A program made the position numbers and the translations under genes. A stretch of 64,000 nt of DNA from Botryllus schlosseri. Its lineage: Eukaryota. The DNA is taken from contig CM119371.1 in the NCBI GenBank assembly GCA_051294905.1, positions 32,614,001 to 32,678,000 of the forward strand. The letters run 5' to 3'. The stretch's first letter is position 1, and each line of letters opens with the position of its first letter. The notes under the pieces are model-generated. The model made no database searches. It was not told where the DNA came from and saw only the letters and a list, made by a program, of their open reading frames with translations. Positions 2,905 through 60,848 of this stretch are shown here, piece after piece.

Positions 2905-4189
2905 GTATGTACGTACAGTAGGGATATCTAGATATGATCCAGTTTCAGGAAATAGACCATCCCACATGTTAGCGTAAGGATTGTGTATTTCCACTCATGT
3001 AAAAACCCTGATATACGGGTGCCAATATACACCCATGGCACACGAAACAAGAGCCTAACTCACACTCGAGTACAGCATTCTATTCCAAATGATGCATTCG
3101 CGTATGTGCTTAGGAAGGTATGCACGTAGGCACGTAGGATTTATGACCGTGATGTAATTCTGTGTAAGGTTCTGTCTCCGGCCCTTTGGATGTGAATACG
3201 CTAAGAGTGTAGTTTTATGGATTTAAAAACGAACGAAGTTAAATTTAGATAGTAAAGTCAATCTCATCATCAAAATACTGGCACAGTCGGAACTTTTTTT
3301 ATCGAGTACAACTGATATTGACGCGCCTGGAGTCATGGCTTGAATCGATTACCATTTTCTGAATGACCTGACTTGAATCCACTGAATCCAATTCACTTCA
3401 CTGAAATGAATTATCTTGACTTGAATTCGACGCATGCATATTATTGAATGATTCATGACTTGAGCGCGAATTTTTAATAAGTCTTTCAAGTCAACAACTA
3501 TTCAGCCTCGCAAAACCTCTCGATCAATAGGCATTCTATAATCCTTTATTCACTGGATTCGGCTTCCGTTTACGTTTTGGATGTGGTAAGTTCGATCAGC
3601 ATGTAGCGACATCTCATATAAAGGAAACGACATCGGCATGCTAGTAAAAGCCACAATAACTGTTTTCACAGGCACTAAAATATCATTAAATCCAAGACTA
3701 AATATATTTAATCAGATGGATCAGAAGGGAAGTTTTTCTATCTTGACAATTTCTAAGAAATCTGATTACGATTTAATATTTTCTCAACAAAAGTTTCTCT
3801 TTCACATAAACATGTAATCGGCTTTGCCTTTTTAGCATAAAGCTTGCATCCATCCTGCATTGTTTTCTCAATGAACATTACTTTCACGGAATTATGCCCC
3901 AATGCCACTTTGGATAGCGCATACCTTATTTTCAGGATTATCATTCCACTATACGCATAGAAGAGTATATTACAGCAGACCAGATTCATTTAGTCACCGA
4001 GTGACGTATTGTACTACCACGAAGGATCCAGGTTAAAACCAATCATACCTGACTATCGAAACATAAACTTCTCAACCTCTCTCATACTGGTAGACTTATG
4101 GTTAGCTATCAAGGTTACAAAATATTCCAAAGACTAGTGAATTAGACAGCGAATACAAGCCGCGCACAATATGTGCAATATTGTCCACA

Positions 4190-4870
4190 CCGACTTGCCC
4201 AAATTACTGGATTTCCAAAAAGCGCAACTACAATTACTACTACAACTAATCAATTTTGGAAACTAGCAACTAGAACTAAATATAGAACTACTCACTTTTC
4301 AAACCACGCAACCATACTAGAACTAAAACTAATCTCTTTTCGAAGCCCGTAGCTAGAACTAGATCTAGCTAGAACTAACGACCTTGCAAAATTAATCGAC
4401 CGCAGAATATAGAGCAAAATTTTGATTTGACCCTCGAACCTATTCACTGCTTCTCATTCTCTGAAAAATAATTTCATTTTACTAAGAAACACATTGATTA
4501 TTATTTTATCGGGAATATTATACACAGAATCGTCATTTCAAAAGGAAGTGTTTCGAGTTTAAAATAGGAGAGATTTCGACCCCCAAACCTCACCCGTTGG
4601 CTACGCCACTGTTAGCAGTGATGGCTTTGAGCGACCAATGGCTGCATAAACATCATTCAGCAGAACGCCGGTATCTCGAATCGCGCAAAACAACAACACG
4701 TGTATTCTAGTTATCCGGCAACTAATATTTCTTCAAATGTGAAACCAGAACTAGATCTATAGAACTACTCTTTTTTCAAAATTCGAAACTAGAACTAGAA
4801 CTAGAAGTACTCAAAACACCGTTAGTTATAGTTGATCGGCAACAAACTAAATGAGTAGTGTGTACTCTGA
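4190..4870 (+). mobile_element. MITE with (ACTAGA)n subterminal arrays
   Basis: ACTAGAACTA arrays at both ends. Copies at about 33890-34570, 54665-55430 and, reversed, 12320-12516. Confidence 0.6.
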
Positions 4871-6106
4871 ATCAACAGTTTAACCATGACTTAACCCTCC
4901 ACTCCAGTAGTCATATAAAAAAATGAACAAATACGAATCCAGGATGCATCCTAAATTAAATTCGAGTAGATTTCATAGTCGAAATACCGGTACGCTATAT
5001 GATCTTTTTTTTCTAGCGACACATGATATTGACATGATTTTTGATAAACTATGTTCTGTCAAATTCTACACTGGTTTCTGAAGATTATCCCTGGCGCGTG
5101 TGTCATTATGTGTATGGTAATTTTAGAAGATATCAGGCAAAATGGCCATGTTTCATCATATGATACGTATCAAAATACAATTAGCACACTTTCCCGATTC
5201 CATAAATAAGATTGTATAATCGTAATCGCGCTATCTTACCAATGTAAAATATACCGCATAGCAAACTATCTGGAAAGCAGGGTTAGCCTGACTAATGCTG
5301 ACTATGAGCTTCCCATAATACTCACGTTCAGATAGACCACCGAAATCGTCGCTAATACCGTTAACATGCATAGCGAGGTTTTTGATCGATTTTGCAAGTC
5401 CTGCGACGATGCCTGAAACAGACTGAAGCCGGATGTAATTTAATGCTAAACCCGCACGCACGAATCGCGTGAGCGCGCTGCGCGTATACTATACAGCTGT
5501 GAAAATGCTGATACATCAATGGCCAGTTCACTGAACAATGAATGGTCTTAATAGTGATATACGTGTGGCGATCAACCATTTTCGAAGTGATCTTTTTATG
5601 TTGTGCTGTGCCTACTGTTGCAACTTACTTTTATTCCTAAGTATATGAACAGAGAATCATATTTAAATCATAGATGTACTTTAGACTTTGTCCTGATTGC
5701 ATTTAAATTAATATTGCAAACAGTATATATATATAAATATATTAGCATAAACATTAAATATCGCGCCGTGTTCACTTGACATATTAAACCACATGATACA
5801 ACATGCACTCATTGGTTCCTAATTCTGCTGTTCTAAAATTACAATCAGTTATCATATAACGTTTCAGATTCGTACTTTGCCGTACATACTCGAAACAGTG
5901 CATTAAATAATGCTTGGAGATATTGGGCAACAAACATTGTCCACATAAAGGGGAATCAGTAGATACAATCTTATGTAAGTGATAATTGAGCCGACAATAC
6001 CCTGATCTCCATCATAACAGTTTCAAAGTAATATTTATAGAATGTACAATGTACATCATGGATAGAACTGTCTCAATGATCTTATATCATCGCATGTCAT
6101 AGGAAG

Positions 6107-7111
6107 TAGGGATGGTGTGAACGTGAGGTTCACGTTCGCGTTCTGTGTGTGAACCTCGGAAATTTAGAGGTTCGTGTTCACAACAGAACCTTGGTAGGTT
6201 CTGCTCTGTGAACCTTTTGGTAAATTGTAATTTTTACTCCATTATATGATTTTTGGCTCAAATTTATTGCATTTCAACTGCATACCACTCCATGCATGGT
6301 GCTGGCAGCATAAAAAATCAACGCTTAACGAGCATGCACCATGCACCTCGACAACCTTAAAAGTTTTAGTTGCTTTGTTGCGAAAATTTTCTCGGAATAA
6401 TCAGCTTTCCGTTTGTGGATATTTAGTGACTATCTGCTGTGAGCTTGACCCGCAATCACATAACATAACGAGCGATATACGTAGTCAGCGAATGATGCTT
6501 ATATTCAACCAATCAATGACATTGATATCGTCTTCTGATGTAAAAAATCGTACGGGCGTACGGGGTCAATCTTGACTTCATATCTGTACTGTATCATTAA
6601 AACCAAATCCGTGCGATTAAGGTGTTTGCTACTACTGCATAACTTGTTGTTGTTTGTGGTATCGGTAGCGAGTATTGAAACCCGTTGTACACTCTGCTCC
6701 ATATCAATGTAGCAATACTCAGACTCCGAACACATAGTCCGGTCTGGCTAAGAACGTTAAGGCGTAAGCTTATATTCCTTGGTAAGTCCTCGTCGAAATT
6801 GTTGGCAAAGCGACGGAATGTATTGATTTTACGCAATTATTATATCCTTTGGTTACAGCTGTTGATACATTTAGCGACGTTTAAAACGCCGACATGTACT
6901 TCAGCATTGTGGCATTATGTGGACCGAGTCTTCGCTAGGTATCGTGTAGGCTACATTAATATAGGCTATCACTTCATTGGAATATAGGGTTGGAATTAGC
7001 AATATGACGTCACGTGACGTCACGAGGTTCACGGCCGTGTTCACACAGAACCTTTCAAAAAGGTTCGCGTTCACACGAACCTGAACCTTTCAGAGGTTCA
7101 CACCATCCCTA
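6107..7111. mobile_element. non-autonomous hAT element, 1005 bp
   Basis: Perfect 16-bp TIRs TAGGGATGGTGTGAAC / GTTCACACCATCCCTA. Perfect 8-bp TSD ATAGGAAG (6099-6106, 7112-7119). Absent from paralogous sites at about 35805 and 56668. Confidence 0.92.
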
Positions 7112-7650
7112 ATAGGAAGGTATTTGAAAGCCAATTTCGTCTACTAGAAACTCCTTTACACCTATATTCAAACGAACTTCTTAGTAGTGAATTTCGTCAT
7201 CCACCGCCGGCGACTTCCATGCCATAACCGAGTGTGCAAAAAGTAGCTAGTATGGGAAACCTAATACATGCTCAAACTCGGTCAGTATCAGAACGCAGAA
7301 ATGCAGGAAATACACAGTATTACAGTGCTTTTAACCTTTTTGGATACCGATTCGCACTTTTTTTTTGTAATTGAATTTCATTCGCTCAAATCAATAAATA
7401 TTGTTATAGTTTTCCTGATGTCTTGGGAAATAAGCTCCAACACGATCACAGAGAGTAGACTCATTAGAGCTCGCTACCTTATGATACGTTCCTCAGACTT
7501 GCGTTCGGTTTTTATTTCTCGATTTCCCATTTCCTGTCTCGCGAGTTAATGGAAAGAGCAAGGATCTCTCACTCGAAACTTAATAACAGTTCGAAAAACT
7601 TCAATAACCAACAACCAGCTTCTTGAACCACGAGAAAAATCAGAGATTTT

Positions 7651-8250
7651 GTGGCATCTCGCCGAGCCTCACACCTGGAAAATATGGTATTTGTAATATT
7701 ACAGTTGCATGCCACGATTTTAAGGACATTCATAACATTAACTACCGAACTTGCAGAACACAATTGTACGCAACACGAAACGTGTCTGACGCACGTGATT
7801 TCAAATAGGAGTGATTTAAATTCCCCTGCTCGTTGCATTTGTACTACTGTCCACTCAGATTGCAAGAACAGGACTATTCAGTGCCAACCGCCGACAACAG
7901 AGCGTATCGATTTGGAAAGGCTTGGCCATCCAGCGACGGTCATTTTTGACCGAGCTTTTGTCGCCGCTGATGCTTTTGGCACCGCATTTTATCAGCGATA
8001 TGTTGGCCAAACTTTACATTTTCCGGTGCCCCGACAAGCCAACATAGAAGGGTCTGGTCTCGAAATAAATGTGTCTCGCGGTCGTTGCACAGAAATGCAC
8101 ACCCCTACACTAGTTCATCTCAACGGTCTTCGACGACGTCTTTCAGAAAACCAGTCGTACAAATCCTATCATGAATCCAAACCAAAGGTCGCAGATTCTC
8201 ATGATAAAGCCATATTTTTGCTTATTGGATATAGTATGCAACAACAGTGA
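7651..8250 (+). pseudogene. longest open stretch (199 aa) of an unidentified decayed coding-like cassette (segment C)
   Basis: Homologous DNA at about 36950-37890, 59040-59730 and inverted at about 39830-40800. The copies give interrupted but mutually similar peptides. No family recognised, and frame and strand are uncertain. Confidence 0.3.
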
Positions 8251-8768
8251 CCCTGGATATGTAAAAATCATCGCCGGATTTTTTGCAATAAATTAAACAA
8301 ATACTACATACATATCAATAGATAGTTCTGGCAACGTGTCGACCTAACATCATATACTCTTTGCGGCCAATACTTTAATAACCCTTGAAGGGGTGAGAAT
8401 TTGCGCTGCAGTAACTTGCGAATGTGAGTCTGTAATGTTGGTACTAATCAATGAGCTCTTACATTGTTGTGCAACGTTATTCGACTCAGCTAGATTGACA
8501 GTCATATATACAACAATTTCATGGGGTTGGCAGCAGTGGCGTAGCAGCAGGTGCTGCCACCCATGGCTTTTCTTGAAAGTGCCGCCGCATAAGCACACCG
8601 CAGCAAATTTCGACATAGTTTCCTGTTCGAGCACTCTTTTCAATAAAAATAATTACAAATAATATGCCGCGTATCAGAAGTTCTATGTTGCTTGAGAAAG
8701 AAGCCCATCTCAGCGTTTATAATGCCAAAAACAATAATGACAAGAAATTGAGAACGAATGTATTAGTC

Positions 8769-10210
8769 CAGGGGCGGCCAACCCGTCACCCGCGAGAAGA
8801 TTTTGAGTGGCTGGCGAAATAATTCGCGAAATTAGCTGTAATATTAAATAATAAATATTCCATGTAATTTATTACCGTTATATATATCGTCTGCTATCGG
8901 CGCAACAAAGTATGTAATTTACTGTGAATTTTCAAGGTCCATCAAAAGTTTGATAAGCTTTACTGCGAAATTTGGGTTGGTAATGACTTGAGCATCATTT
9001 CCGACGCAATGGCGTAGCCAGGGGCCAGCCAGATTTTTCATAAGATCTTCGTATATGATCATAAAGTAGAATATTTCGTGGTAGATTTATTTGACTCGAT
9101 ATTTTTATTAGCACTTAGCGCGATTTATTGTCACTCAAATTCTTGCTTATAGTACTCCCTCCTTAAAATTCACCGAATTGAGTCTGACAATACTCGCAAT
9201 TATGAGAGAACGTGTCGTCCAACATCCGACTTCGCATCTGCATTTGTAGAAAGATGATAGGTGATGATGAAACATTCGTACAAAATGATAGACGCCTCTA
9301 CGCCGGAATCTACGATATTTATATGCCTAAGCGCCGAATATTCGTGTCCTTGTCAAATGAGCGCAGCGGCATGCAAAGGCGACCCGCAATATATGCAAGT
9401 GGCAGAGGTATTGGCCGAACTCATTCATTATAATTTAGAAAAATGTTAGCGCTTGGCTCGGTTAGTTCACGAGTGCACTATGCACGCTGACTTTTCACGA
9501 CATAATTGTTATCGATTTTGATGCCTAGTAATATACGTCTTCTTTCCAGGGTTGTAATGACTCGAGTCAGACTCGAGACACGATTTTCTGATGACTCGAC
9601 TTGACTCGAGTCATTTTTTAAAAATACGGAAATCACTTTACTCGATTCGAGTCAATCTGTGTATTGCGCATGACTCGAACCAAGTCATATGACTTGAGAC
9701 CAAGACGGCCAAGACCGATATTTCATTGTGATTTCGAAGAATAGTAAAGAAACCACCCTATCGGGTCGGGACTTCGACTATTGGTACTGGTACTTAAAAA
9801 GGCGACCAGAAACTGATAAAAGTGAGGAAAATTAGTATATTACAAACGCGAACCAGTCGATATCACCAAACAGAGTTATAAAAGTGGGTTTGACAAGACT
9901 TTAACTGGAAACTAAGCAGTCAACACGATGACTTGGACTCGGACTCGAGTCATAATACCATGAGTCGGACTCGAATACCGGGTCGATGACTTGGACTCGG
10001 TGGTGAATTGAAAATGACTCGACTTGACTCGTGTCAAAACTATAAAAGTGAGATTGACTAGTGACTCTGTTACAACCCTGCTTGTTTCCGTATAGTCCGG
10101 CTCGCTCCTATCGAACGACTCAAGAAAGGTCATCAAAATTCAACATCCAAGTGGCCTGCTCAATGATTCCCAAATCTCATGTGGCCCTTTGACCGAAAAG
10201 GTTGGCGCCA
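8769..10210. mobile_element. degenerate hAT-like MITE (CAGGGGCGGCCAAC family)
   Basis: Left end CAGGGGCGGCCAACCCG, decayed right end AAGGTTGGCGCC. Paralog at 38120-39000. Interior related to 43937-44520. Confidence 0.55.
9547..10080. mobile_element. hAT MITE, GACTCGAGTC-rich family
   Basis: TIRs CAGGGTTGTAA / TTACAACCCTG. TSD CTTCTTTC / CTTGTTTC (7/8). Absent at the paralogous site at about 38875. Confidence 0.85.
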
Positions 10211-10244
10211 TGTATTGGACAAATATAAAAAAATCAATAGCCGC

Positions 10245-10625
10245 CTCAAAACTGAACTCTCCGGGCTTTCAGCGGAACGAAATCAGCGACAATATTCTAA
10301 AAATCAAGTTTTTGAACGTAGTCCCTTTCTATAAAAAGAATGGATAGAGGTGATAGCCGATACTCATTCACGGTATAACGTAAATAAGACTTTATCAGTT
10401 TGAGCTTTGAGAATCTCGTCTCAGAGCTCGCAATTGAAACACAAATGGTCAGACACGTATGGTGTCGAATCATGTAGGTGTGATTTAACTAACCACCGTA
10501 AAACATCGAACGCTGTTGCATTACGATCAAAAGTGGTTTCACGGCTCCGCACCAGCCTCTTAAATCTGTCAATTTCCGCATCTAACTCCAATTTAACAAT
10601 GAAATACTGTTTTTAACAGAAATCT
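10245..10625 (-). pseudogene. hAT transposase C-terminal (dimerisation) remnant, ZMYM1-like type
   Basis: Frameshifted paralog of 39035-39415, which reads IASCERSFSKLKLIKSYL.STVNEDRLS. Confidence 0.75.
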
Positions 10626-10630
10626 ATTAC

Positions 10631-10670
<40 letters not shown>

Positions 10671-11095
10671 AGTATTGTACACATGGTGTTCGGCTACAAT
10701 GGCCTTTTACACCAGGTCTTAAGAGTCTGACAAAGCCATTAGCGTCACAACTGTCTGCCGGTGAGGATAACGAATTCAGCCACCGGTAGTAAAATACGTG
10801 AATCTGATAACAGTATTGTGAGATGAAACGGTATGCCTACATTCGCCGCTGTCGTCTTCAAGTGATTACGGTGGGTCGAATAGTGTTGGAAATGAATTGA
10901 AAAGTATTCGACCGTATCGTCGACGTATCGCATAAACCCATCTCGTGACATGCAATTCTGCGAAGGTGCCAGTGGATTCTACAGTGGCCCGTTTGCAATC
11001 TTATCAGAATTGATGAGATTGTTCGGGAGGATATGCTGCAGCTTGGCATGATTGGCTATACAGAGGTGACCCGCAATATATGTATCGGCCGTAGC
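10631..11095 (-). mobile_element. 5'-truncated non-LTR retrotransposon (I-group-like ORF2 C-terminus) with (AAC)n tail
   Basis: Minus-strand peptides ILIRLQTGHCRIHWHLRRIACHEMGLCD and DTVEYF...VAEFVILTGRQL*. Homologous to 25120-25385. (GTT)n at 10631-10670 is the 3' tail. Confidence 0.85.
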
Positions 11096-11099
11096 AATG

Positions 11100-11330
11100 T
11101 AAAACTTCGAATGCTGCTGCATTACGATCAAAAGTGGTTTCACTGCACCGCACCAGCCTCCTAAATATGTCAATTTCTCCAGCTAACTCCAATTTAACAA
11201 CACAATACTGTTCATAATCGAAAGCTATTGTTGCCTCTTTGATTGCGGCTGGTCGGGACAACGGAAACACCGTGAAATATACCCTTCTATGTTTGAACAT
11301 CGGCATTGTTCCGAATATTCGCTCGATATA
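11100..11330 (-). pseudogene. second overlapping hAT transposase fragment
   Basis: 11100-11235 is a diverged duplicate of 10500-10632. Reads ...DYEQYCVVKLELAGEIDIFRRLV..., directly upstream of the dimerisation motif in the other copies. Confidence 0.55.
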
Positions 11331-11580
11331 ATTTCCATTATCATGGTCAATTTGGTCATAGTGTTGCGGCGCTCCGATTAATCGGAACAATCGGTCTTGA
11401 CGGCTGTTTCGGATTGGTCCAATTGCCATGCTCACATTTTAATTTGTGTTTTCGGAATCAGTGCGACACTAGCTTTCGATTTAGACCAGTTGATTAAATT
11501 TGAGGTCTCGGGTCGCCATGCAGCTATAGGACTACAAATTATACGCTGCTTTTAGCCGGCTGTGTACTCTGTGCACTGTG

Positions 11581-12180
11581 CAGTAGGGGTCTTCAAAATG
11601 ACTTCTTTTCTCTATTTGTACTGGCTACTTGATAAAATTGTGAGGTTAGCTAATTTAGGCCTACACGCCAAATTACAACCAGTATAGCCTCAATTCCAAC
11701 CAGTATAGCCTCATTGCTACAGGAGAAATAAGTTTCTATTTATCACATAAAAATAAATACAAATATAATTGAAAATTATCTGTTCGCTCCATCAAAGTGT
11801 TAGGTTGTCTACAGAAACGATGTTCACCAAATTTGGTTCAAACCCAAGTCGTGGAAGCGGAGTTATTGCAGTCGCAAAATTTGGATTTGAATAAAATAGT
11901 AAATTAGTAATAATAAATATTTAAAGAATTGGTCACCGTAAATACTATTTTATTCATAATCCAAATTCTTCGACGGCCATAACTCCGCTTCCACTGGTTG
12001 GAATTGAACCAAACTTGGTGAACATCGTTTCTATAGACAGCCTAACACTTTCATGGGGTGAACAGAAATTTTCAAATGTTTTGGTATTTACTTGTACATA
12101 GTAAATAGAAACTTTCTTCTCTTGTAGCAATGCGTCTACTGGTTGGAATTGAGCCAAAGTTGGTGTGTAGGCTTGCATTA
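11581..12180. mobile_element. foldback-type MITE with long inverted arms
   Basis: About 11655-11901 is the diverged reverse complement of about 11943-12180, around a ~40-bp spacer. Related to 14127-14617. Confidence 0.7.
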
Positions 12181-12722
12181 GGTACGGTTCTCAACATTAA
12201 ATGACTTGGGAACCCCTGTGGCCGAGCTGGGCAATTATTTTTCTGAGAATAACAAGCAGAAATACGTTGAAGGATAAGTCAAAAGTTGGCACTATATGTA
12301 GTGTATGAATTCTAAAATGATGTTAGTCTGAGTTTTAGTTCTAGTAGCGGATTTTGAAAAGTGAGTAGTTCTAGTTTTAGTTGCGGATTTTAAGAAGTTG
12401 TTAGTTCTAGTTTTAGTTTTAGTTATCGTTCCGGGATTGAAAAATAATGAGTAGCTCTAGTTCTAGTTCTAGTTCTAGTTGTCCTTTTTGCATATCGAGT
12501 AGTTTGTATAAGTCTGAGCATGAGTCAGGGTTGTATCCAAATCACAAGGCTTCGAGTCACAAGTAAATCTCATTGATACAGTGTTGAATCGCGTCATTTT
12601 CAATTCGACACCGAGTCAAGTCAGGGTGCAGAGGGTCAAGTCCGAGTCATAGTCTTATGATTCGAGTCCGAGTCTGTGTCATTGTGTTGACTGCTCAGTT
12701 TCCTGTTGAAGTCTTGGTATAC

Positions 12723-13114
12723 TAGGGTTACCATACGTCCTCTTTTGAGAAGATTTGTCCTCTTTTTTGAATCTTTTGAAAGTGTCCTCGGAGGACGCCC
12801 TTTTGTCCTTTTTTTGAGAATTTAGGTCATATTTACTGCAACATTCGACTGATATGTCGTAAATCAGCGCCGGAGTGGTGCTCCGGGTATTTCGGGAACT
12901 GGGCGGGTAGTTGACCTTTTTTGTTAGTCAATCACCTAACAATGTGGAGGAAAATCTGTATTTTGGGCGTTGAGCGAGTAAGTTGACTTTTTTTGGTCAA
13001 CCGACGTCAAAGTAGAAAAAATTCGCCATTTTTTGAGAATTCACCTCCGGATTTGCAAGTCTGAAAATTCTGAATAAGTGTCCTTTTCAGATTTTCAAAA
13101 ATGTTGTAACGCTA
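12723..13114. mobile_element. hAT MITE (TAGGGTTACCATACGTCCTC family)
   Basis: Left TIR TAGGGTTACCA, decayed right end TGTAACGCTA. TSD TGGTATAC / TGTTATAC. GTCCTC repeats. Same family as 21208 and 52082. Confidence 0.8.
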
Positions 13115-13797
13115 TGTTATACCCATTTTATTATAACACTGTTTGGTGATATCGAATGGTTCGCATTTATAAAATACTAATTTTCCTCAATTTTGGCCGT
13201 TTCTGCTCGCATTTTCAAGTACCAAACCAATAGATGAAATCCCGACAGTATGGTCACTTCACTATTTTTCGAAATTGCGATGAAATGACGGTCTTGGTCG
13301 CAGGGTTGTAATGACTCGAGTCATGACTCGACTCGAGTCAGACTCGAGTCACGATTTTTTTATGACTCGACTTGACTCGAGTCAATTTCTTGAAATGGGA
13401 AAATGACTCGACTCGACTTGTACTCGAGTCATTACGCATGACTCGACCCAAGTCATTGACTCGGCTTATTTTATATGACTTGAAGATGAAGAAATTTGCG
13501 AATCATAATGGCTAGATCAACGCATCCGACGAATTCTGCCGACATCGCTATTTGTCACCACTGCTTTCTTCGCACTTGTCTCATATCAGATATGCCGCCG
13601 TAAAAACAACAGAAAATGTACATAGTAGCAATGCATTGTACAAAATCGTCCAGTGATGAAGAGGTAATAGATCCTCCGCAATTAAAGTACTCAAGACTTT
13701 TCAATTATACAAGCAAGCAATTGAATCAAAATTCAATTAGAGCCAATGAAATGACTCAGATGGTGAAGAGACTGATAAGCTCATGTGTAGATTTGAA

Positions 13798-16409: not shown

Positions 16410-16442
<33 letters not shown>

Positions 16443-49772: not shown

Positions 49773-51308
49773 TTAACATTTATGTTTTTTGATGACAGCA
49801 TGTATCTTCATGTGAAGACGGAGGTTATTCTTCTGGGAGAATACCTGGCCACATATATCACGTTTACCACTTTTTCTTCCATCATGAGTATCCATATGAC
49901 GACTAAGGTCACGCTTCTGAGTAAATACTTTCCCACATACATCGCATTGATGATTTTTGGTGCCGGAATGCATCTCCATATGAAGCTTTAGCACATTCTT
50001 CCTAATGAATGGTTTACCACAAACATCACATTCATGTTTTCTGACACCAGCATGCATATCCATATGATAATTGAGGACAGGTTTATGAGTAAATGTTTTC
50101 CCACATACATCACATCGATGATTTTTGATGCCAGCATGTATAACCATATGATTTCTGAGGTAATTTTTACGAGAAAATGCTTTACCACATAAATCACATT
50201 CATTATTTTTGATGCTTGAATGCATCTCCATATGAAGCTTTTGCTCATATTTCGTGATAAACGGTTTACCACAAACATCACATTCATGTTTTTTGACACC
50301 AGCATGCATATCCATATGACGCTTGAGGCTCTGTTTCCGAGTAAATGCTTTCCCACATACATCACATTCGTGGTTTTTGATGCCAGCATGCATATCCATA
50401 TGAAGCTTGAGGTCACCCTTCCGAGTAAATGCTTTCCCACATACAGCACATCCATAATCTTTGATACCAGCATGCATATTCATATGTTGCTTGAGGTCCA
50501 GTTTATTAGTAAATGCTTTTCCACATACATCACATTTATGTCTTTTAATGCCAGCATGCATATCCATATGACGTTTGATGTGACCATCCTGAGTAAGTGC
50601 TTTTCCACATACATCACATTTATATTTTTTGATGCCAGCGTGCATATTCATATGTCTCCTGAGGCCATCCTTCCCAGTAAATGCTTTCCCACATACATCG
50701 CATTCATGATTTTTGATGCCAGCATGCATATCCATATGACGTTTGATGTGATCATCCTGAGTAAATGCTTTTCCACATACATCACATTTATATTTTTTGA
50801 TGTCAGCGTGCATATTCATATGTTTCCTGAGGTCACCCTTCCCAGAAAAGGCTTTCCCACATACATCACATTCATGATTTTTGATGCCGGCATGCATATC
50901 CATATGACATTTGATGTCACCATACTGAGTAAATGCTTTTCCACATACATCACATACATGATCTTTGATGCCAGCATGTATATGCATATGTTTACTGAGG
51001 ACATGTTTCTGGGTAAATGCTTTCCCACATATATCACATTCATGTCTTTTGACGCCAGCGTGCATATCCATATGAGACTTGAGGTAGCTCTTCAGATGAA
51101 ATGATTTCCCACATATACGACATTCATGACTTTTGATGCCAACATGCATATTCATATGTCGCTTGAGGTTATTCTTCATTGTAAATGCTCTCCCACATAC
51201 ATCACATATATGAGTTTTGGTGTACGCGTTTTGAGAGAATTCTTTTTTGGCAACATCGCATGGATGATCATTCAAGTCGTGCGGAATAGATAATTTTTCT
51301 GACTCCAT
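49773..51308 (-). CDS. tandem C2H2 zinc-finger protein, 16 intact + 1 degenerate finger (ZF-2)
   Basis: 511-aa ORF with 28-aa C2H2 repeats. Terminated by TAA within finger 18. Paralog of 19262-20434. Confidence 0.9.
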   Translation of the reverse strand: MESEKLSIPHDLNDHPCDVAKKEFSQNAYTKTHICDVCGRAFTMKNNLKRHMNMHVGIKSHECRICGKSFHLKSYLKSHMDMHAGVKRHECDICGKAFTQKHVLSKHMHIHAGIKDHVCDVCGKAFTQYGDIKCHMDMHAGIKNHECDVCGKAFSGKGDLRKHMNMHADIKKYKCDVCGKAFTQDDHIKRHMDMHAGIKNHECDVCGKAFTGKDGLRRHMNMHAGIKKYKCDVCGKALTQDGHIKRHMDMHAGIKRHKCDVCGKAFTNKLDLKQHMNMHAGIKDYGCAVCGKAFTRKGDLKLHMDMHAGIKNHECDVCGKAFTRKQSLKRHMDMHAGVKKHECDVCGKPFITKYEQKLHMEMHSSIKNNECDLCGKAFSRKNYLRNHMVIHAGIKNHRCDVCGKTFTHKPVLNYHMDMHAGVRKHECDVCGKPFIRKNVLKLHMEMHSGTKNHQCDVCGKVFTQKRDLSRHMDTHDGRKSGKRDICGQVFSQKNNLRLHMKIHAVIKKHKC

Positions 51309-52081
51309 GTCGCCCTTGTTATGGAAATGACCGTACGATGGTGTTTATTTATTACAGTGGAATATCTGTTTTCAAGTTCAAAGTGGTTATTACATATTTT
51401 CAACAATTTCTTCAGTGTATATACCAGTAAGCTAGTTCTTTGACGGTATGGCACTGTCTGATAAATATGAAACTATGAAAGTGTCGAACTAATCTTAACA
51501 AAGAGCAGCATTAGACTGTCATTGTCATACTATTATATCATGCAATAAAAATATTATCACATATTTAAACAATTTGGTCGGAATTAGTCAAATAGCATCA
51601 ATGCGATCATCATTTTGATCACTTTTGAATAATTCAAACTATAGACAGATAATACCACTATGAAAAACTATTGACAAAACATCCTCAATTTACAACAAAT
51701 CCCCGATCAACTGGCAAAGCAACATAGAGCTTTGTGGTAAAGGTGCATATATATCTGCTGGTGCAGAGAACGTATGGCTCATTTTTGGACACGAAATGGC
51801 CTCGTAGTTGAATCTTCAATCTCGCACTTAATTCTCGTCTTGGTTATGAATATCGCTGTAACGATTTGGTGGATTTCATAATGGCCTGAATCATTATTCT
51901 TGTGGTAGCTGAGACAAGTGTATGTGAGGTTACCTTAACATACAAAATATAGACGTATGCAAGTTAAACTCAGATGTCACTACTAAGATTTTTATTAATG
52001 TCATTTCGACACCATTGGATTTTCGAAAGGCACAATGGCACTCCGATGTAATCCGGTTTTGACAAAAATATGTATATATTA

Positions 52082-52507
52082 TACGCTTACCATACGTCCT
52101 CTTTTAAGAGGATTTGTCCTCGTTTTTGGCTCTTTTGAAAGTGTCCTCGGAGGACGCCCTTTTGTGCTCTTTTTTGAGATTTTGTCCTCTTTTTTGAAAA
52201 TTCAGGTCAGATTTAGAGCAAATTGCGAGTGATATGCCGCAAATTAGCACATAAGTGAAGCTCCGGCGGGTATTTCAGGTCTGAGCGAAAAGATGACCTT
52301 TTTTTTTTTTAGTTATCCACCTGGCAATGCGGAAAGAAAAACGGTATTTTTAGCTCTGAGCGGAAATAATGACCTTTTTTTTTAGTCAACCGATCACAAA
52401 GTGGAAAAAATTAACCGGTTTTTCAGAATTCTACTCCGGTTTTGCTGCAAGTTGCAAATTTCTGAAAAAGTGTCCTCTTTTTAGATTTCCAAAATATGGT
52501 AAGCCTA
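52082..52507. mobile_element. hAT MITE upstream of ZF-2
   Basis: Paralog of 21208-21630. Perfect TSD ATATATTA. Confidence 0.88.
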
Positions 52508-55500
52508 ATATATTATCCCTCAGGTATCACACACTTACACTATCATAACATTCGGGAAATATTAGTCTTAAATTAGAATTACGTTTATGATTCACAATGA
52601 GCAGACTATGGGACTTCTACAACGACAGGCCTGTAAAGTAGGCTACAAGATGTAAAATGGCAAATGATGAAAACACCGACATTGAAAACATCTATGTCAC
52701 AAACGACATGGATATTGAAAAAAAAAAATTTGACTTTGTAAACAATTTTTACACTTTTTTGTCCTAAAGCAACAATTATTACAATATTTTTACTTTTTTT
52801 GCGATGTTAAAAAAAACCTTGTCTTTAACCATGGAAAATCGCGCTTCGTTATAAGAATTTTTTGCGTCGTGACATTCAAAAGATATTAAATAGATATTAC
52901 AAGAGCGCTCTGGTGTCGTCGCGACCCAAAATTGTACCATTCGTGTCCCATACTTCAAGAACTCCTGTCCTGCAGTCATAGTCATGTTTAAAGCGTGGTA
53001 ATAACCGCTGCCGGTAGGCCGATTTACCTAAAATATACGCATTTGCTCGTACTAATCATATTAAAATCTGGTCCTGTGAAGACATGTACTCGCCGCAAGC
53101 GCAACGGAGATTTTCAAGTTGAATAGATCTCCAACAAACGACCAACGTAATATTTTAGGCCCCTTCTATCTCTCCAGAAATGGGGGTTTGGGGTGCAGCA
53201 GCTATGACCCTGGTAGATCGTCTTCAGGGGCGACAAACATACGGCCCACGGGCCGATTCCGTCATACCAGGCCATTTTATGCGGAAGCAATTATGAGTGA
53301 ATTCTTGTATTATCCAGCACGTTTACAACAAATGTTGTTCACAGAAGCCAAAAAGCCAACGCTAGACCGTCTTGACATAAACCCAAATTGCGATTTAATA
53401 CTAATGAGCATGATTTAAATATCTGCGTTTATAGTCAAACTTGAAACGAAATGGAGCATAGAAATATGCAAAGTTATGTTGTCGTTAAAGCCACTATTTC
53501 ATTGGTTTATAACTGTATTCAGCCGGCACATTATGGCCGTCCGATCACTTCGCGAAACCCAATTATCCAATTCCCTCATCCACCACGTAGTTGGGGCGTT
53601 AGTTCCACCATGGTAAGGAATAATATAGCCATACTGTACCAGCTTCTTTAAACAATTTTTTGGTGAATGGGATAGGTCAACTACAGAGAAGTAGAGAAAT
53701 ATTTTTAATATGCGAGATGTACGACTGTACAGGTACACAGTATCTCCTGCACCTATTTAATTTTCAATGTCATACAATCAATTCATGTGCTTCTTAAATT
53801 GTGTGCAATGATTTCACGGCTGGACATTTTAACCTTACGCTTTTAGAAGTAGTAGGCTATTTATGTTTCATTTGCATTTCCCAGTATCATATTCTTTGAG
53901 TTATAATTAATGTCAGTTCTTTTGTCTGGATAACATACATGTTGAAGTATAAATGCAAGTGTAGTAATGCCTTTAATTTCCTAAAATAAAGCTACACAAT
54001 ATGGCATCTTTACGGTCCACAATATATTTTATTAACGTTTACTAATCGCGCACAGTGTTTACAGCGTATCTTATACAATTTCTCCGTATTGCTATCCGAC
54101 TAAATTACGGATCTTGTAATATGGGGATGGTGATATTGACGCGTCTGGAGTCATAGCTTGAATCGAGTACCATTTTCTGAATGACCTGACTTGAGTCACT
54201 CCACTGAAATAAATCGACTTGACTTGAGTTTGACGCATGCATATTATTAAATCATTCATGACTTGAGCGTGATTTTTTAAAAGTCTTTTAAGTCATCAAC
54301 TATTCTGCCTCGCAAAACCTCTCGATCAATAGGCATTCTATAATCCTTTATTCACTGGATTCGACTTCCGTTTACGTTTTGGATTTGTTAAGTTCGATCA
54401 GCATGCAGCGACATCTTATTTTCAGCATTCTCATTCCATTATACACATAGAAGAGTATATTACAGCAGACAAGATTCATTCAGACAACGAGTGACGTGTG
54501 TACTAACCTGGAAGAATCCATACCTGACTATCGAAACATCAACTTCTCAACCTCTCTCATATTGGATGACTTATGGTTAGCAATCAAAGTTACAAAATAT
54601 TCTAAAGACTAGTGAATTAGACAACGAGTACACGCCGCGCACAATATGTGCAATATTTTCAACACAGACCTGCACAAATTAGGCTACTGCATTTTCAATA
54701 AGCGCAGCTACAATTACTACTACAAATACTCAATTTTTGAAACTAGCAATTAGAACTAAATACAGAACTACTCACTTTTCAAACTACGCACTCATAACTA
54801 GAACTGGAACTAATTTTTTAAAGCCCGCAACTAGAACTAGATCTAGATCCAGCTAGAACTAACGACATTGCAAAATTAATACACCGCTGAATATATAGCA
54901 AAATTTTGACTTGACCCGCGAACCTATATTTACTGCTTCTTATTCTCTGAAAAATAATTTCATTTTACTAGGGGACACATTGATTTTTATTTTGTCGGAA
55001 ATACTATACACGGAATCGTCATTCCAAGAGGAAGTGTTTCGAGTTTGAAATGGGAGAGATTTCGACCCTCAAACCACACCCGCTGGCTACGCAACTGTCA
55101 ACAGTGATGGCTTTGAGCTATCAAACGGTGCATAAACATCATTCAACAGAACACCGGTATATCGAATCACGCAAAACGACAACACGCGCATTTTAGTTGT
55201 TTGGCAACTAATATTCTTCAAATGCGAAACTAGAACTAGAACTATAGAACTACTCACTTTTCAATATCCGCATTTAAAAATAGAACCACTCACTTTTCAA
55301 AATCCGAAAATAGAACTAGAACTAGAACTACTCCGTTTTTAAAATCTTCAACTGGAAATAGGACTTGAACTACTCAAAACACCGTTAGTTATAGTTGAAC
55401 GGCAACCAACTAAACGAGTAATGTGTACAAGCTTTTTTCAACAGTTTAACTATGACTTAACCCTCAAGAAATATAAAATAAATTAGTAGGGTATTTCAAC

Positions 55501-56745
55501 AAATACGAATCCAAGCTGCATCGTAAATCAATTCGAGTAGATTTCATACTCGAAATACTGGTACGCTATATGATCCATTTTTCCAGCGACAAATGATATT
55601 GACATGCTTTTAGATAAACATTATTTTGTCAAATTCTACACTGGTTTCTGAACATTATCCCTGGCGCGTGTGCTATCATGTGTATGGTAATTTTAGAGGG
55701 TATCAGGCTAAATGGTCATATTTCATCATAGGATACGTATCAGGGTATAAGTAGCACACATTACCGATTCCATAAACAATATTCTATATTCGTAATCGCG
55801 CTATCTTCCCAATGTAAAATATATCGCATAGCAAGCTATCTGGAAAGCAGGGTTAGCCTGACTAATGCTGACTATGAGCTTCCCATAATACTCACGTTCA
55901 GATAGACTACCGATAGCGTCGCTAACACCGTTAACGTGCATAGCGAGCTTTTACCTCGATTTTGTAAGTCCCGCGACGATGCATGAAACAGACTGAAGCC
56001 GGATGTAATTTAATGCCAAACCCCCATGTACGAATCGCGTTAACGCGCTGCGCGTGTACAGCTGTGAAAATGCTGATAAATCAATGACCAGTTCCCTGAA
56101 CAATGAATACTCTTAATAGTGATATACGTGTGGCTATCAACCATTTTCAAAGTGATCTTTTTATATTGTGTTGTACCTACAACTGTTGCAGCTTACTTTT
56201 ATTCATAAGTAGGCCTATATGACAAGAGAATCATATTGAAATCATAGTTGTACTTTGGACTATGTCCTGTTTGCCTTCAAAGTTTTATTGCAAACAGTAT
56301 ATATATATATAAATTCATTGGCATAAACATTAAATATTGCACCGTGTTCAGTTGACATACTAAATCACATGATCCAACATGCACTCAGTAGTAACTATTT
56401 CTGCGGTACGAAAATGACCATCATTTATAATATAACGTTACAGATTTGCACTTTGCCGTACATGGGCTACTCGAAATAATGCTAGGAGGTATCGGGCTAC
56501 AAACATTGTCCACACAAAGGGGAAACAGTAGATAAAATCTTATGTAGGTGATAAATGAGGCCACAATACCCTGATCTCAATCAAAACAGTTGCAAAGTAA
56601 TATTCATATAACGTACAATGTACATCATGGATAGAGTTGTCTCGATGATTTTATATCTAAGCATGTCATTGGGAGGTATTTGAAAGCCAACGTCGTCTTC
56701 TAGAAACTTTTTAATACCTATATTCAAACGAACGTCTTGCTAGTG

Positions 56746-58012
56746 CAGCGGTTCTCAAACGGGGGTCTGCGGACCCCTGGGGGTCTGCGAAGCCTCTAAA
56801 CTTGCAAAATGATTTATTATTGTAAGTCAGTTTTCGCTTCATTACTCCTACAACTTCATGACTCACATCGACATAAAGGCCGTCTGAAATGACATGTCCT
56901 ACTGCGCAAACTCATTTTAATTGCCAAATTCCCAATAGCCTACTGATAAAAAAGGTATTGCGGTTCAGAGAAGTTTGTTGGAGTGATATACAAAACCACT
57001 ATCCCAGACCAACTTCAAGATGAGCTCCTGAATGAAAATGGATAGGATGGACGTTATGTGTTCAATGAAAAATCGGAGTCTCGATTTTGGTGCTATATAT
57101 GGTGCGATCATACTTAAAGGGGTCGTCAGTTCCCATTAATATACCATTCACCCCACCCATATTTATAGAAATAAATTTTCGGCACTCGGTCATATCAAAT
57201 CGAAGAGGCGGAGTTTCAAGACATGGCCACGAATTTCAGGAAAGTCAGCTTCAGAATTTGTTACCGTCTACCCAATTTTCACATAAATAGTGTGATATTA
57301 GTTTGTTGCAATATTTAGCACTATAGCCAGCAATTAATATTCGTAAAACACAGATGACGATTGCCCGATAATTAAAGCTTGTTTGTGGTATTCATGGTGT
57401 TTTTCGACTACTATGGTCTTTCACACTAGACCATTGTTGCTCATTTTTATTTAATAGCTGCCGACTTCTATCATGACCCGCTTCTAGGCTTTTATAAGAC
57501 ACTGTTTACATGAGATGGCGAGGAGGAACTTGGATAAGCCTCCAATACATGGGTATAGGTATTTTGGAGGCGACCTCGGTCGGACTCGAACCCGCAACCC
57601 AGTGGTGGTTGCTGCTGTTTGTTTATTTTCTGAGGTATTCATGGTGTTAGTCGACTACCATTGGACATTTTTCATTCCGTAACTGCCGGTTTATACCACG
57701 GCCCACTTCTAGGCTTTTTGTGAGACACCGCTTACGCGGATGAGGTGGCGAGGAGGAGCCTAGATAAACCTCCAACATTTAGGTATAGGAATTCTGAAGT
57801 CGTCCTCGGTCGGACTCGAACCGGCAACCATTGGTGTTGCACCCGCGGATCTCGCCACCGTGTTGCTGCTGTGGAATGTGGATTATACCACTACGCTATC
57901 TCGTTAAATTGAGCTAAATTGAGCTAAATTGAACTAAAATTTGGGGAGGGGTCCGCGGGGTCCTTGGTGGTCCAAAAGGGGTCCGCGAAGACAAAAAGGT
58001 TGAGAACCATTG
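56746..58012. mobile_element. hAT MITE (GCGGACCCC family, reverse orientation) containing two SINEs
   Basis: Ends CAGCGGTTCTCAA / TTGAGAACCATTG. Perfect TSD TGCTAGTG. Empty sites at about 7185 and 35878. Confidence 0.9.
57379..57903 (-). mobile_element. two tandem tRNA-derived SINE copies (57379-57600 truncated; 57607-57903)
   Basis: Minus-strand A-box TAGCGTAGTGG (57888-57898). B-boxes GGTTCGAGTCC (57812-57822, 57582-57592). Shared body and AACACCATGAATACC...AAAC tail. Confidence 0.82.
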
Positions 58013-58081
58013 TGCTAGTGAATTTCGTCATCCACCACCGGCAACTTCCACGCCATAATCGACTCTGCAAAAAGTAGCTAA

Positions 58082-58684
58082 ATATGAGAGAGAGAGAGAG
58101 AGGTAATATTCTTTTTCACCTGCACTAGCGAGATGCTTTGACGACGGAGTGGCGATACGGCCGTGAGGTCAATCTGGTCTGCGTCACGTTTTTTCTCCTG
58201 CGTGCTATCCGTGATTGCCAAGCGCCTAGCAGGATAGCTGCGGTTATCAAGTTTGGGCTCTTTGGTATGACCCGGACGGGGATCGAACCCACGACCTACC
58301 GCTCGAAAAGCCGGACGCATGACCATTACACTATCACGCTCGGTATGGAAAGAAAAGGACTTAGTTTATTTTTGTCCTTGATGTTTTTGCGGCATATACA
58401 CCGACTCATGATACACATACACACGATATGCGCATATGCATACCATGAGTGGAAGATGTGCTTGTGCATATGGCGCTGGACAAGGACGGTGCAGATATAG
58501 CCTTGTGTGGCTTTCTAAGTCTCGCACCACCTCTCCATGCTATCCCATTAATGCATGAGCGCCAAGCGAAGAAGTCGTGGATATCTGTTTTACTAATCAG
58601 GTCTTTGGTCTGACCCGTCCGCGGATCAAACCGACGACCTGCCGATCAAGAAGCCGGACGCTTCGCCATTACGCTATCTTGTCT
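58082..58684 (-). mobile_element. second tRNA-derived SINE family, two heads in tandem, (TC)n tail
   Basis: Head 1: TAGTGTAATGG...GGTTCGATCC...GGGTCATACCAAAGA (58259-58335). Head 2: TAGCGTAATGG...GGTTTGATCC...GGGTCAGACCAAAGA (58600-58680). Absent from paralogous sites at about 7250 and 35942. Confidence 0.8.
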
Positions 58685-60848
58685 TGGGAAACCTAATACA
58701 CGCTATAACTCGGTCAGTGTATGAGAACGCAAAAATACAGGGAAGACACATTATAACAGTGCTTTTAAACCTTTTGGGATACCAATTCGCCCTTTTTCTT
58801 GGATAATGAATTTCATTCGCTCAAATCAATCAAAAATTGGTATAGTTTGCCTGATGTCTTGGGAAATAAGCTCCAACACGATCACGGAGAGCTCGCTACC
58901 TTATGATACGTTTCTCAGATTTGTTTTTTGTTTTTATTTTTCGTTTTCCCATTTCCTGTCTCGCGAGATATAATGGGAAGAGCAAAGATCTCTCCCTTGA
59001 AACTTAACAACAGATCGAAAACCTTCAATGACCAACAACCTGCTTCATGAACCACTAGAAAAATCAGAGATTTTGTGGCATCTCGCGACCCGAGCCTCAC
59101 ACATGAAAAATAATGCATTTTTAATATTACAGTAGCATGACACGATTTTAAAAACATGCATGACATTGGCTACCGAACGTGAAGACCACAATTGTACGCA
59201 ACGCGAAACATGTCTGACGCACAAGAATTCGAATAGGTGTGATTTAAATTCCTCTGCTCGTCGCATGTGTACGACTGTCTTCTACGATTGCAAGAACGGG
59301 ACTATTAGGTGCAGACTGCCGACAACGGAGCGTATCCATATCGAAAGCTTTCGGCCATCCGGCGACGGTCATTTTTGGCTAAGGTTTTGTCGCCGCTGAT
59401 GCTTTGGCACCGCATTTTATCAGCGATTTGATGGCCAAAACTTTACATCTTCATTTGCCATTACATAAAAGGGGTTGGCCTCGAAATGAATGTGTCTCAT
59501 AGGCCTGAACGCGCTCGTTGCATACCCCTACATTAGTTCATCGCAAGGGTATTCGACCACGTCTTTCAGAAAACCAGTCGTACAAATACTATCATGAACT
59601 CGGACTATAGAACGCAGATTCTCATGATCAAGCCATATTTACTCCGTGTCTCAACAGTGACCTTTATGTAAAGACTATCGCAGGATTTGTTGCAATAAAC
59701 TCAACAAATACTACATATATAACAATAGATCAGTCGTTCCTTTTTGTCTTCGCGGACCCCTTTGAACCGTGATCAACCCCGCGGACCCCCTGACGTTTTA
59801 GTTTGAATTTAGCACATTTATCGTACAACCGTCATCTATCTTGTGCAAATATCAACTCAAGGCTAGTGATAAACAGCAACAAAATGACCGTGCTTGAAAA
59901 CAATATCATACTATATGTAGAAATATGGATATACTTTTTTTATTTATTTCGGAATGACTTTTGTAGCTGTATTTCTTATTTCTTGAAATATGTGGTCGTG
60001 TCCTAAAAATTCACGCCTTCGATTTCATATGAACCAGTGCCGAAAATTCATTTCCACAAAGGTAGCTGAAGGCGAATGTAATATTAACGACTGACGCTTC
60101 CGAAGACACCTTTGAGCACTATCGCAACATATATGCCATCAAAATTGAGAATCAAATTTTTAATGAAGTTATCACTTCCAGACTAGTCATTTCTATATAT
60201 CAGCTAAACTTCAAGATATTCTGGAATAGTGGTCATGTATATCACAGGAGAATATGGATTCCCTGATGAGGTTTTAATCTCTTTTTTTAGATGAAATAAA
60301 AAATACTCTTTTTAACAGACCTCAACAAAACATCTTTAAACAGCAATATATTTGTATCAGTAGGCTATTGGCAACTTGGAAATTGAAATGAGTTCACACC
60401 AGGGGCGTCAAACCTACGGCCCGAGAAGCCATTCCCAGTAGATTGAAAAATATATGTATTATCCAGCACATTGGTCACAAATGTTGATTTGCTTGGAAGA
60501 AAATACTTCCGTTAAATATTCCCCCACGGCAGCAAATGTTGAAAATGTTCGTAGGAAACATTATATTCACCAGACTACGGTGTTTTGGTTTCACACTTGT
60601 TACCACTATAGGAACAAATCAGTGACATTGACACCCAATTTCGAAAAGGCAAAAAGTGCACACATGATTTGAGTTTTATGGAATAATGTGCCAAAAAGTA
60701 GTTATTCACACAAGCGAAAAGCACTATGCTGAGCCGTTATATGAGGTTTACATGGATAATATATTATTTACACAAAAATATAATTCGGATATCGGTGCAT
60801 GGTTGCGCTGCAGTATCATTTCTGACTCGGAACTAGGTCGCCGGAACG

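Follow-up and report, generated by a model that had tools for sequence, protein, structure and literature searches.

To our knowledge, repression through KRAB and TRIM28 is specific to tetrapods, whose KRAB-ZFP clusters are marked by tandem duplication, a single 3' finger exon and the gain and loss of fingers. Published work dates KRAB repression to tetrapods and describes KRAB-less poly-C2H2 expansions with local duplication, differences in finger number, gene conversion and change at contact residues; among paralogous poly-ZF genes finger number usually varies and selection is seen, whether they carry KRAB or not, and for Ciona 103 poly-ZF proteins are counted, KRAB being absent (Emerson and Thomas 2009, PMC2604467). 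Seven ascidian genomes are listed with 53-477 ORFs of at least five fingers (PMC10547256, supplement file 2). The cyprinid FiNZ-ZNFs, at ~700 copies, are clustered KRAB-less genes in TE-rich surroundings, with a finger exon whose contact sites change rapidly, a conserved 28-residue N-terminal exon and knockdown evidence (PMC10547256). Wells et al. (2023, PMC10547256) have already connected KRAB-less ZNF families with TEs throughout the Metazoa; the idea of a KRAB-less TE-binding ZNF is itself not new.

Our analysis of a stretch of 64,000 nucleotides from Botryllus schlosseri, hereafter the window, suggests that it probably holds a small, lineage-restricted poly-C2H2 family in birth-and-death evolution within a MITE-saturated region, the MITEs being passengers and the changes ordinary ZF turnover. 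The locus shares with the systems above its local duplication, finger gain and loss (here for two genes), conversion and contact-residue change. It differs from the KRAB-less expansions in its HAGIK-type linker in place of TGEKP, in the number of genes in the window (two) and in having no close database relative; from the FiNZ genes in that no conserved coding 5' exon was found and in its apparently few close copies; and from the KRAB-ZFP clusters in that no KRAB domain was found in the window.

The earlier note had proposed a tandemly amplified, recombining, KRAB-less ZF locus embedded in a hAT/MITE nest, with a ~20-kb unit repeated at ~30-kb spacing and one ZF gene per full copy, differing in finger number, finger fusion and contact residues. 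This description is borne out. Units 1 and 2 (Table 1) are colinear, with ~13.5 kb aligned and offsets of 26.1-30.9 kb overall and 28.7-30.9 kb in the main blocks, placing them ~29-31 kb apart, and a partial third unit is alignable over ~3.8 kb. In each full unit the minus strand carries one poly-C2H2 exon, with at least five C2H2 fingers in a 28-residue register and a single frame, as in other poly-C2H2 (tandem ZNF) genes. ZF-A has 11 intact fingers, with the Cys/His ligands complete in 11/11, and ZF-B has 16 canonical fingers that keep these ligands, followed by six decayed ones; the three in-frame stops 3' of ZF-B finger 17 and the MITE within its last finger were absent from the earlier note. 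The contact residues of the two genes differ in fingers 5, 6, 7 and 9. Both have linkers of the H[AV]G[IV]K type (HAGIK) and not the canonical TGEKP; only 1/268 database ZF proteins has xG[IV]K in at least 30% of its linkers. Among the five Pfam matches listed for ZF-A all are to C2H2 families, and its leader weakly matches zf-H2C2_2 (E 0.0006).

Table 1. Positions of the features located in the window.
Feature	Position	Strand	Basis
Unit 1, tandem segmental duplication	3149..22594, continuing 27442-27892		alignment
Unit 2	32863..54130		alignment
Partial unit 3, without a ZF exon of its own, upstream of ZF-B	54131..59730		alignment
ZF-A: ATG 20434, 33-residue leader like a degenerate finger, 11 fingers, ~55-residue tail, stop	19262..20434	-	ORF + Pfam
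ZF-B open frame: ATG 51308, 16 canonical fingers, finger 17 without first Cys, stop in finger 18	49773..51308	-	ORF
ZF-B decayed tail: fingers 18-22, three stops, 3-codon deletion, Cys/His ligands lost	49396..49775	-	sequence comparison
Crossover interval within ZF-A finger 10	19552..19557	-	informative sites
Recently homogenised tract: fingers 1-10 and 2.1 kb upstream	50434..53472		46 substitutions + 5 small gaps vs 19560-22594
3' UTR homologue (in A: ~18700-19260), one-strand single-cell read pile-up upstream of AATAAA	47336..48002	-	read depth
~830-bp block, CpG-rich, with conserved motifs and a 56-nt stretch resembling an intron; candidate for promoter plus non-coding 5' exons	55493..56329	-	repeat comparison
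TACTT-family hAT-type MITE, 1283 bp, 8-bp TSD, in ZF-B last finger; ZF-A site empty	48113..49395		TIR/TSD + empty site
GAACC-family MITE, exact 8-bp TSD, unit 1 only; motif not in the earlier note	6107..7111		TIR/TSD
GACTCGAGTC-family MITE, TSD 7/8, unit 1 only	9547..10080		TIR/TSD
Deletion derivative of a hAT, GACTCGAGTC family, TSD exact over 8 bp, with the remnant of a broken hAT dimerisation domain (13849-14013)	13301..15311	+	Pfam
GTCCTC-family MITE upstream of ZF-A, common to ZF-B (~52087-52510); further copy 12723-13114	21208..21630		TIR/TSD
GCGAAT-family TIR element, 15-bp TIR, TSD 6/8, unit 2 only	39446..41415		TIR/TSD
hAT-type element, exact 8-bp TSD, common to unit 1 (~16753-18535)	43424..47207		TIR/TSD + alignment
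GGCTCC-family MITE, exact 8-bp TSD, nested in unit-2-only stretch	43772..45504		TIR/TSD
GCGGACCCC-family MITE, exact 8-bp TSD, unit 3 only	56746..58012		TIR/TSD
TIR element of the GGATT family, beyond the duplicated units	2491..2904		TIRs
CCGACT array that follows a hAT-like left end, its right end not found; beyond the duplicated units	60849..61000	+	motif clustering

Unequal recombination has taken place between the copies, since finger 10 of ZF-A is a hybrid, B10-type on its 5' side and B21-type on its 3' side at informative sites, and since the 5' half of the gene with ~2 kb upstream has been homogenised (1.5% divergence vs 6-12% in the flanks). ZF-A lacks a stretch of 11 units, 915 nt long, that holds all three stops in the B-type array. 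The duplicate copies fall into three divergence levels (~25%, 6-12% and 1.5%), and repeated tandem duplication has generated copies of these three ages. The 11-finger ZF-A came from a recent unequal crossover or conversion in which a B-like 5' part was joined to the final two fingers of a sister gene. ZF-B ends after finger 17, its tail decaying. The hAT MITEs entered independently, before and after the duplications.

The product predicted from these exons is a fingers-only DNA-binding protein, encoded by a transcript with putative non-coding 5' exons; it may recognise a G/A-rich genomic target and act as a competitor or adaptor, without a built-in repressor domain. The family is transcribed at a low level, with an exon depth of 1-3 in two raw RNA runs (a family-wide figure in which the copies are not told apart), and reads of a single-cell run cover the 3' region of the ZF gene at a depth of 23.4 vs 0 by strand. 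Of the two matters that the earlier note had left to RNA data, expression is seen at the family level, and no conserved coding upstream exon was found in the window. No splice joint lies near the ZF gene among the 15 joints listed (1259 further), and no conserved stop-free frame of at least 60 residues occurs in the window outside the ZF exons. The candidate promoter block, with four other copies (4928-5753, 23592-24419, 30907-31715 and 34629-35450), has nearly no RNA depth. A FiNZ-like coding exon hidden in this five-copy block was considered and is not convincing: its short frame is weak, with 8 synonymous and 16 non-synonymous changes. As the earlier note had remarked, no effector domain is visible: Pfam over 150 of the 151 frames of at least 70 codons in the window gave no KRAB, SET, ZAD or other effector, nor did tblastn of 285 N-terminal regions, those of KRAB-bearing proteins included, against the window, with a single weak match outside the ZF exons (E 0.013). 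Rfam and ARAGORN gave no matches.

The surrounding elements had been described as about ten TIR families, each with its own subterminal motif. Seven of the nine motifs named do sit at the ends of TIR-bounded elements; the ACTAGA arrays run in a single orientation with no TIR found, and CCGACT has a hAT-like left end, with no right end located. The main GGATT and CCGACT arrays lie outside the span that the earlier note had covered. TSDs of 8 bp with 0-1 mismatch flank the GACTCGAGTC, GGCTCC, TACTT, GTCCTC and GCGGACCCC elements, exact or 7/8 TSDs being found at 6107, 9547, 12723, 13301, 21208, 43424, 43772, 48113 and 56746; the GGATT element has TIRs and no clean TSD. We identify the elements as hATs because of these 8-bp TSDs and of two dimerisation-domain remnants, one just below the Dimer_Tnp_hAT cut-off (E 0.00036, 20.7 bits vs 21.4) and the other, at 39091-39258, above it. 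A relation of the MITEs themselves to a hAT transposase is seen for one family only, GACTCGAGTC. The element starting at 43424 predates the duplication, since it is present in units 1 and 2, and at least four MITEs entered single units afterwards, one of them in ZF-B itself. The MITEs are very abundant genome-wide by DNA-contig depth, a rough measure in which contigs can merge variants (50,000-340,000 in MITE bins vs 15-25 for single exact contigs); on the same rough measure the ZF bins reach 1,700-2,400, and the sequence just upstream of the exon 67. Ds-like non-autonomous hATs have the same short TIRs, 8-bp TSDs, element-specific subterminal repeats and dimerisation-domain remnants; such subterminal repeats are described for Herves, Ac, Tol2 and Tag1, and hAT transposases are reported to bind short subterminal repeats whose motif varies by element (PMC3143072). 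The arrays seen here are thus probably sites for the elements' own transposases, by analogy with these known hATs, from which the locus differs in having no autonomous partner in the window.

The earlier note had gone further and suggested a TE-recognition repertoire with these subterminal arrays as its targets, a proposal for which we see no positive support: the arrays have a standard explanation as transposase sites, the MITEs are abundant genome-wide, at least four inserted after duplication and a recognition-code test was unremarkable. The top predicted match of both ZF-A and ZF-B is the GGCTCC/GGAGCC MITE end, 6.5-fold enriched, but in a low-power test with a coarse code 46 and 49 of 144 unrelated control arrays scored as well or better on MITE ends, the ten best controls all choosing GC-rich GGAGCC ends too, and the finger-array statistics of A and B are mid-range among the 144. 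Because the code is coarse and published ZF motif predictors recover just 5% of known motifs (PMC10547256), this negative result is weak. We consider it rather unlikely that the locus forms a KRAB-independent repertoire in which fingers 6-8 read GGAGCC-type hAT arrays, of the MITEs or of their autonomous partners, and either obstruct transposase or, by way of an exon or partner protein not seen here, bring in silencing. The excess of change at contact sites, the internal two-finger repeats that with recombination would allow quick changes of specificity, the low-level transcription and the predicted preference of octopus, sea urchin, weevil and zebrafish ZNFs for TEs, DNA transposons included (PMC10547256), would fit such a role; the absence of an effector from the frames searched, the motifs already accounted for as transposase sites and the MITE that disrupted ZF-B speak against it, and a trans-acting factor needs no adjacency to targets that are everywhere. 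It is unlikely that a tunicate-type, effector-less HAGIK-linker family, diversifying by unequal crossover that can also rescue fingers from a decayed tail, recognises hAT subterminal transposase-binding arrays, the GGAGCC repeats for example, and competes with transposase to block mobilisation, as a host defence against DNA-transposon ends that arose apart from KRAB and FiNZ. If binding to hAT ends were shown, it would give direct invertebrate-chordate evidence for a ZNF-TE connection now based mainly on statistics, and competition by fingers alone would be a further mechanism.

Selection at the contact residues bears on a second alternative, in which the two copies have little or no function and a low-copy gene drifts neutrally, the contact excess being due to chance or finger conversion. 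In fingers 1-9, 4/7 amino-acid changes between A and B fall at DNA-contact positions, and in tests based on this one gene pair contact sites changed more than framework non-synonymous sites (4/85 vs 3/535, P 0.008) and upstream DNA (4/85 vs 28/2034, P 0.037), the comparison with synonymous sites (4/85 vs 2/135) not being significant (P 0.16). The faster change at contact positions would point to selection on specificity, perhaps mild and diversifying at these residues. Drift would account for the three stops and the MITE in ZF-B, for an overall pN (0.014) equal to the upstream divergence (0.014), for the exon RNA depth of 1-3, and for changed contact codons that each have at least one allele found at the same position of another finger. 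We nevertheless think it improbable, since all Cys/His ligands are kept in the 11 fingers of A and 16 of B, pS (0.038) exceeds pN, the framework changed less than upstream DNA (3/535 vs 28/2034, P 0.087), the 3' reads pile up on one strand and the exons are CpG-depleted (0.53 and 0.62 vs 1.03). The lack of any relative above 53% identity among the protein matches listed would also suit drift; the searches returned generic C2H2 proteins only (best identity 53% among 120 listed, 47% among 150 and 50% among 120 shorter), ESM Atlas matches were generic C2H2 clusters, metagenome scans gave no relative and the first 62 residues share no words with any candidate protein. On the birth-and-death reading that we prefer, the locus shows readably how a ZF array changes: one finger is a hybrid, 11 units are lost and three stops with them, the 5' half has been homogenised and contact residues have changed.

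That units 1 and 2 might be two haplotypes of one locus, misassembled in tandem, is very improbable and was rejected: the ZF halves of the two copies are 98.5% alike and the deepest DNA run has very many variant letters across the stretch, but the sequences in matching positions upstream of the two genes agree at just 75-77% (29168-29443 vs 54131-54413; 31236-31561 vs 55766-56086), the ~830-bp block is present five times and the third unit is 11-15% diverged from both others.

A PRDM9-like hotspot gene with its KRAB, SSXRD and PR/SET exons elsewhere is least probable of all and was rejected, for although the C2H2 array with its 84-bp unit has rearranged through unequal exchange and oyster SET-bearing PRDM9-like proteins are among the most identical matches (44-53%), its fingers are not homogenised (mean identity 0.58 and 0.60 vs 0.82-0.87 in four oyster SET-ZF proteins), its diversity is not focused on contact sites (share at positions -1, 3 and 6 of 0.21 and 0.23 vs 0.37-0.52 in oyster) and no SET, KRAB or SSXRD exon was found within the window. 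The available part of a cnidarian PRDM9 preprint (10.64898/2026.09.07.749791) does not mention tunicates. Among the 144 control arrays, 65 and 44 are at least as concentrated in diversity at contact sites as ZF-A and ZF-B. Among the subterminal motifs, window-wide counts are at chance for CCGACT (23 vs 19.0 expected), GCGAAT (41 vs 39.3) and GGATT (119 vs 117.0), for which local clustering alone is special, and far over chance for GACTCGAGTC (13 vs 0.0) and GCGGACCCC (9 vs 0.1).

Probably the locus records ordinary birth-and-death in a C2H2 gene that is lineage-specific and fingers-only; the hAT MITEs around it would be passengers. A six-frame scan found C2H2 fingers in two places only, the minus-strand poly-C2H2 exons ZF-A and ZF-B (copies A and B). 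Past finger 16, B continues with an in-register finger lacking the first Cys and five decayed units with three stops and a 3-codon deletion, and a 1283-bp element, bounded by TIRs and flanked by an exact 8-bp TSD, interrupts its last finger; the corresponding site in A is empty. Finger 10 of A switches from the type of B's finger 10 to that of its finger 21 between 19557 and 19552 (8/9 informative sites of the former type before the switch, 25/28 of the latter after it), which accounts for the absence from A of 915 nt and all three stops. Of the 7 residues that distinguish A from B in fingers 1-9, 4 occupy helix position -1 or +3; contact sites changed at 4/85, against 3/535 for the framework (P 0.008), 28/2034 for upstream bases (P 0.037) and 2/135 for synonymous sites (P 0.16). 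This excess is only suggestive, since it comes from a single gene pair and such codons can arise by conversion between fingers. The observation of the earlier note as a whole is confirmed in part; the recombining genes of differing finger number and contacts that it described are borne out, and finger number varies likewise (here 11 versus 16) between paralogues of other poly-ZF families, which are described as commonly expanding without KRAB (PMC2604467). CpG depletion of the finger exons (0.53 at 19262-20434 and 0.62 at 49396-51308; window 1.03) is consistent with gene-body methylation; codon use may contribute. A contig of sequencing run X5, from a different sample and 92% alike to B fingers 16-18 (49702-49947), shows another long-form family member there.

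Positions of the duplicated units, finger exons and repeated features
Feature	Position	Strand or orientation	Remark
Unit 1	3149-22594 plus 27442-27892		self-alignment
Unit 2	32863-54130		self-alignment
Unit 3 (partial)	54131-59730		self-alignment
ZF-A	19262-20470	minus	11 fingers
ZF-B	49773-51344	minus	16 fingers
Five-copy block	4928-5753, 23592-24419, 30907-31715, 34629-35450, 55493-56329
ACTAGA arrays	4240-4810, 12330-12480, 33970-34500, 54800-55320	one orientation

The subterminal arrays of some ten TIR families, each with its own motif, had been proposed as candidate targets of the fingers. TIRs and 8-bp TSDs were found for the GACTCGAGTC, GGCTCC, TACTT, GTCCTC and GCGGACCCC families, and for two further, unnamed families; the GCGAAT family has a 6/8 TSD, GGATT no clean TSD, CCGACT a left end alone, and a search for TIRs of the ACTAGA arrays came up empty. 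These arrays occur in all three units and so would predate the duplication. Inside one GACTCGAGTC element is a broken hAT dimerisation domain; another such remnant (39091-39258, minus strand, Pfam E 6e-5) lies in sequence common to units 1 and 2. Empty sites place four insertions after the duplication (6107-7111, 9547-10080, 48113-49395, 56746-58012); elements at 43424-47207 and 21208-21630 are common to units. DNA-contig depth, which is no copy number, was 50,000-340,000 in MITE bins (exact contigs listed: 15-25), 1,700-2,400 in finger bins and 67 immediately upstream of the finger exon; a gap of four orders of magnitude shows the MITEs to be genome-wide and the gene region to be low-copy.

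A coarse recognition code drawn from textbook rules was applied to A and B in three-finger windows to score the ends of ten families. The best predicted enrichments, 6.6-fold (A) and 6.5-fold (B), both fell on GC-rich GGAGCC ends, but were reached by 46 and 49 of the 144 scorable arrays among 146 unrelated controls with eight or more fingers, the ten best of which all chose this family. The modelled scores lend no support to targeting of MITE ends; they hardly count against it either, since published predictors themselves recover only 5% of known motifs (PMC10547256). Next to hAT ends, short repeats peculiar to each element are described as transposase binding sites (PMC3143072). TE binding by KRAB-less ZNFs was already proposed in several phyla by Wells et al. 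2023, whose counts of ZNF ORFs for seven ascidian genomes span 53-477 (PMC10547256). A TE-recognition repertoire is unlikely here. No report on ascidian poly-ZF binding to transposons was among the literature matches listed.

Other elements include a probable SINE pair (58081-58684, minus strand), present as an insertion in unit 3 alone; two of its stretches look tRNA-like by eye (no match in ARAGORN or Rfam), and it terminates in a CT repeat. RNA from its family is more abundant in the bulk run than any other signal (depth about 755), and a related piece (28250-28417) lies inside a TACTT MITE at 28250. We take two fragments (24594-25106 and 36194-36851) to be of non-LTR retrotransposons: one has a frame resembling RNase H (Pfam E 0.0067); the other, confined to unit 2 and lacking a Pfam match, is a 3' piece that terminates in a TC repeat.

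Neutral decay of the ZF genes is quite improbable. Sequencing runs were compared, at 91% likeness, with 44001-64000, the part that holds copy B and its flanks; 4 of 24 listed runs were used, and 3-6% of the two raw RNA runs was covered. Finger-exon depth was about 1-3; in a single-cell run the 3' region (47336-48002) reached 23.4 on one strand and 0 on the opposite one, the pattern of a minus-strand transcript provided that the second mate corresponds to the sense strand, as is conventional in such libraries. AATAAA lies just downstream of it in copy A. The few RNA reads at two diagnostic sites carry the letter of copy A (2/2 each), 34/44 reads at 47972 carry a letter absent from both copies, and in four X5 contigs the number of differences from B equals that between A and B (7, 1, 8, 1), a fifth having 2 versus 1. 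The family is therefore transcribed weakly, with a share coming from other alleles or paralogues, and copy B is not singled out. None of the 15 splice joints listed (1259 others) lies near the gene.

Units 1 and 2 align over ~13.5 kb in nine colinear blocks, and each full copy holds one ZF gene. Fingers 1-10 and 2.1 kb upstream differ by 46 substitutions in ~3.0 kb (1.5%), unit flanks by 6-12% and unit 3 by 8-15%; positional homologues further upstream are about 75-77% alike and the five copies of an 830-bp block 65-92%. By this gradation the locus is a mosaic with parts of three or more ages, in keeping with repeated duplication and recent exchange; it does not fit two haplotypes assembled in tandem, and an assembly artefact is very improbable. 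The window is eukaryotic (GC 39.7%), and runs carrying it are mostly of one organism, with a small share of marine metagenome. Part of the unit (7600-8443 and homologues) recurs in inverted form (72-85%) at 40009-40772 inside the GCGAAT element, and 11706-12138 is palindromic (arms ~190 bp, 79-84% complementarity, 70-nt centre).

Protein searches gave no relative above 53% identity among the matches listed, metagenome scans none, and just 1/268 ZF proteins compared has at least 30% xG[IV]K linkers; the subfamily is thus lineage-restricted or unsampled. A PRDM9-like finger exon, rejected on the evidence of the finger-array comparison, is scarcely credible.

As the earlier note had held, no effector domain is visible. 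Pfam searches of 150/151 stop-to-stop frames of at least 70 codons (the other being an alternative frame inside ZF-B) matched C2H2 families and, weakly, RNase H, with three further weak and unrelated matches. N-terminal regions of 285/389 ZF proteins (KRAB-, SCAN-, SET-, ZAD-, BTB- and THAP-annotated included) gave 378 tblastn matches, all but one of them (E 0.013) in the finger exons, and 5595 tblastx alignments gave no stop-free conserved frame of at least 60 residues outside these exons. The 33-residue leader of A resembles a degenerate finger; a further short coding exon may exist. The five-copy block, 3-5 kb upstream of each ZF gene, is CpG-rich (1.74 vs 1.03). Four stretches of 11+ bases are invariant in it (column shuffling: P 0.008; the longest by itself, P 0.16), and a segment of 56 nt carries donor (4/5 copies), branch and acceptor (5/5) motifs; RNA depth is near zero. 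These motifs make it a candidate promoter with non-coding exons; a short coding frame within it was unconvincing. Its five copies accompany only two ZF genes, the copy at ~5400 having no finger exon downstream in the window.
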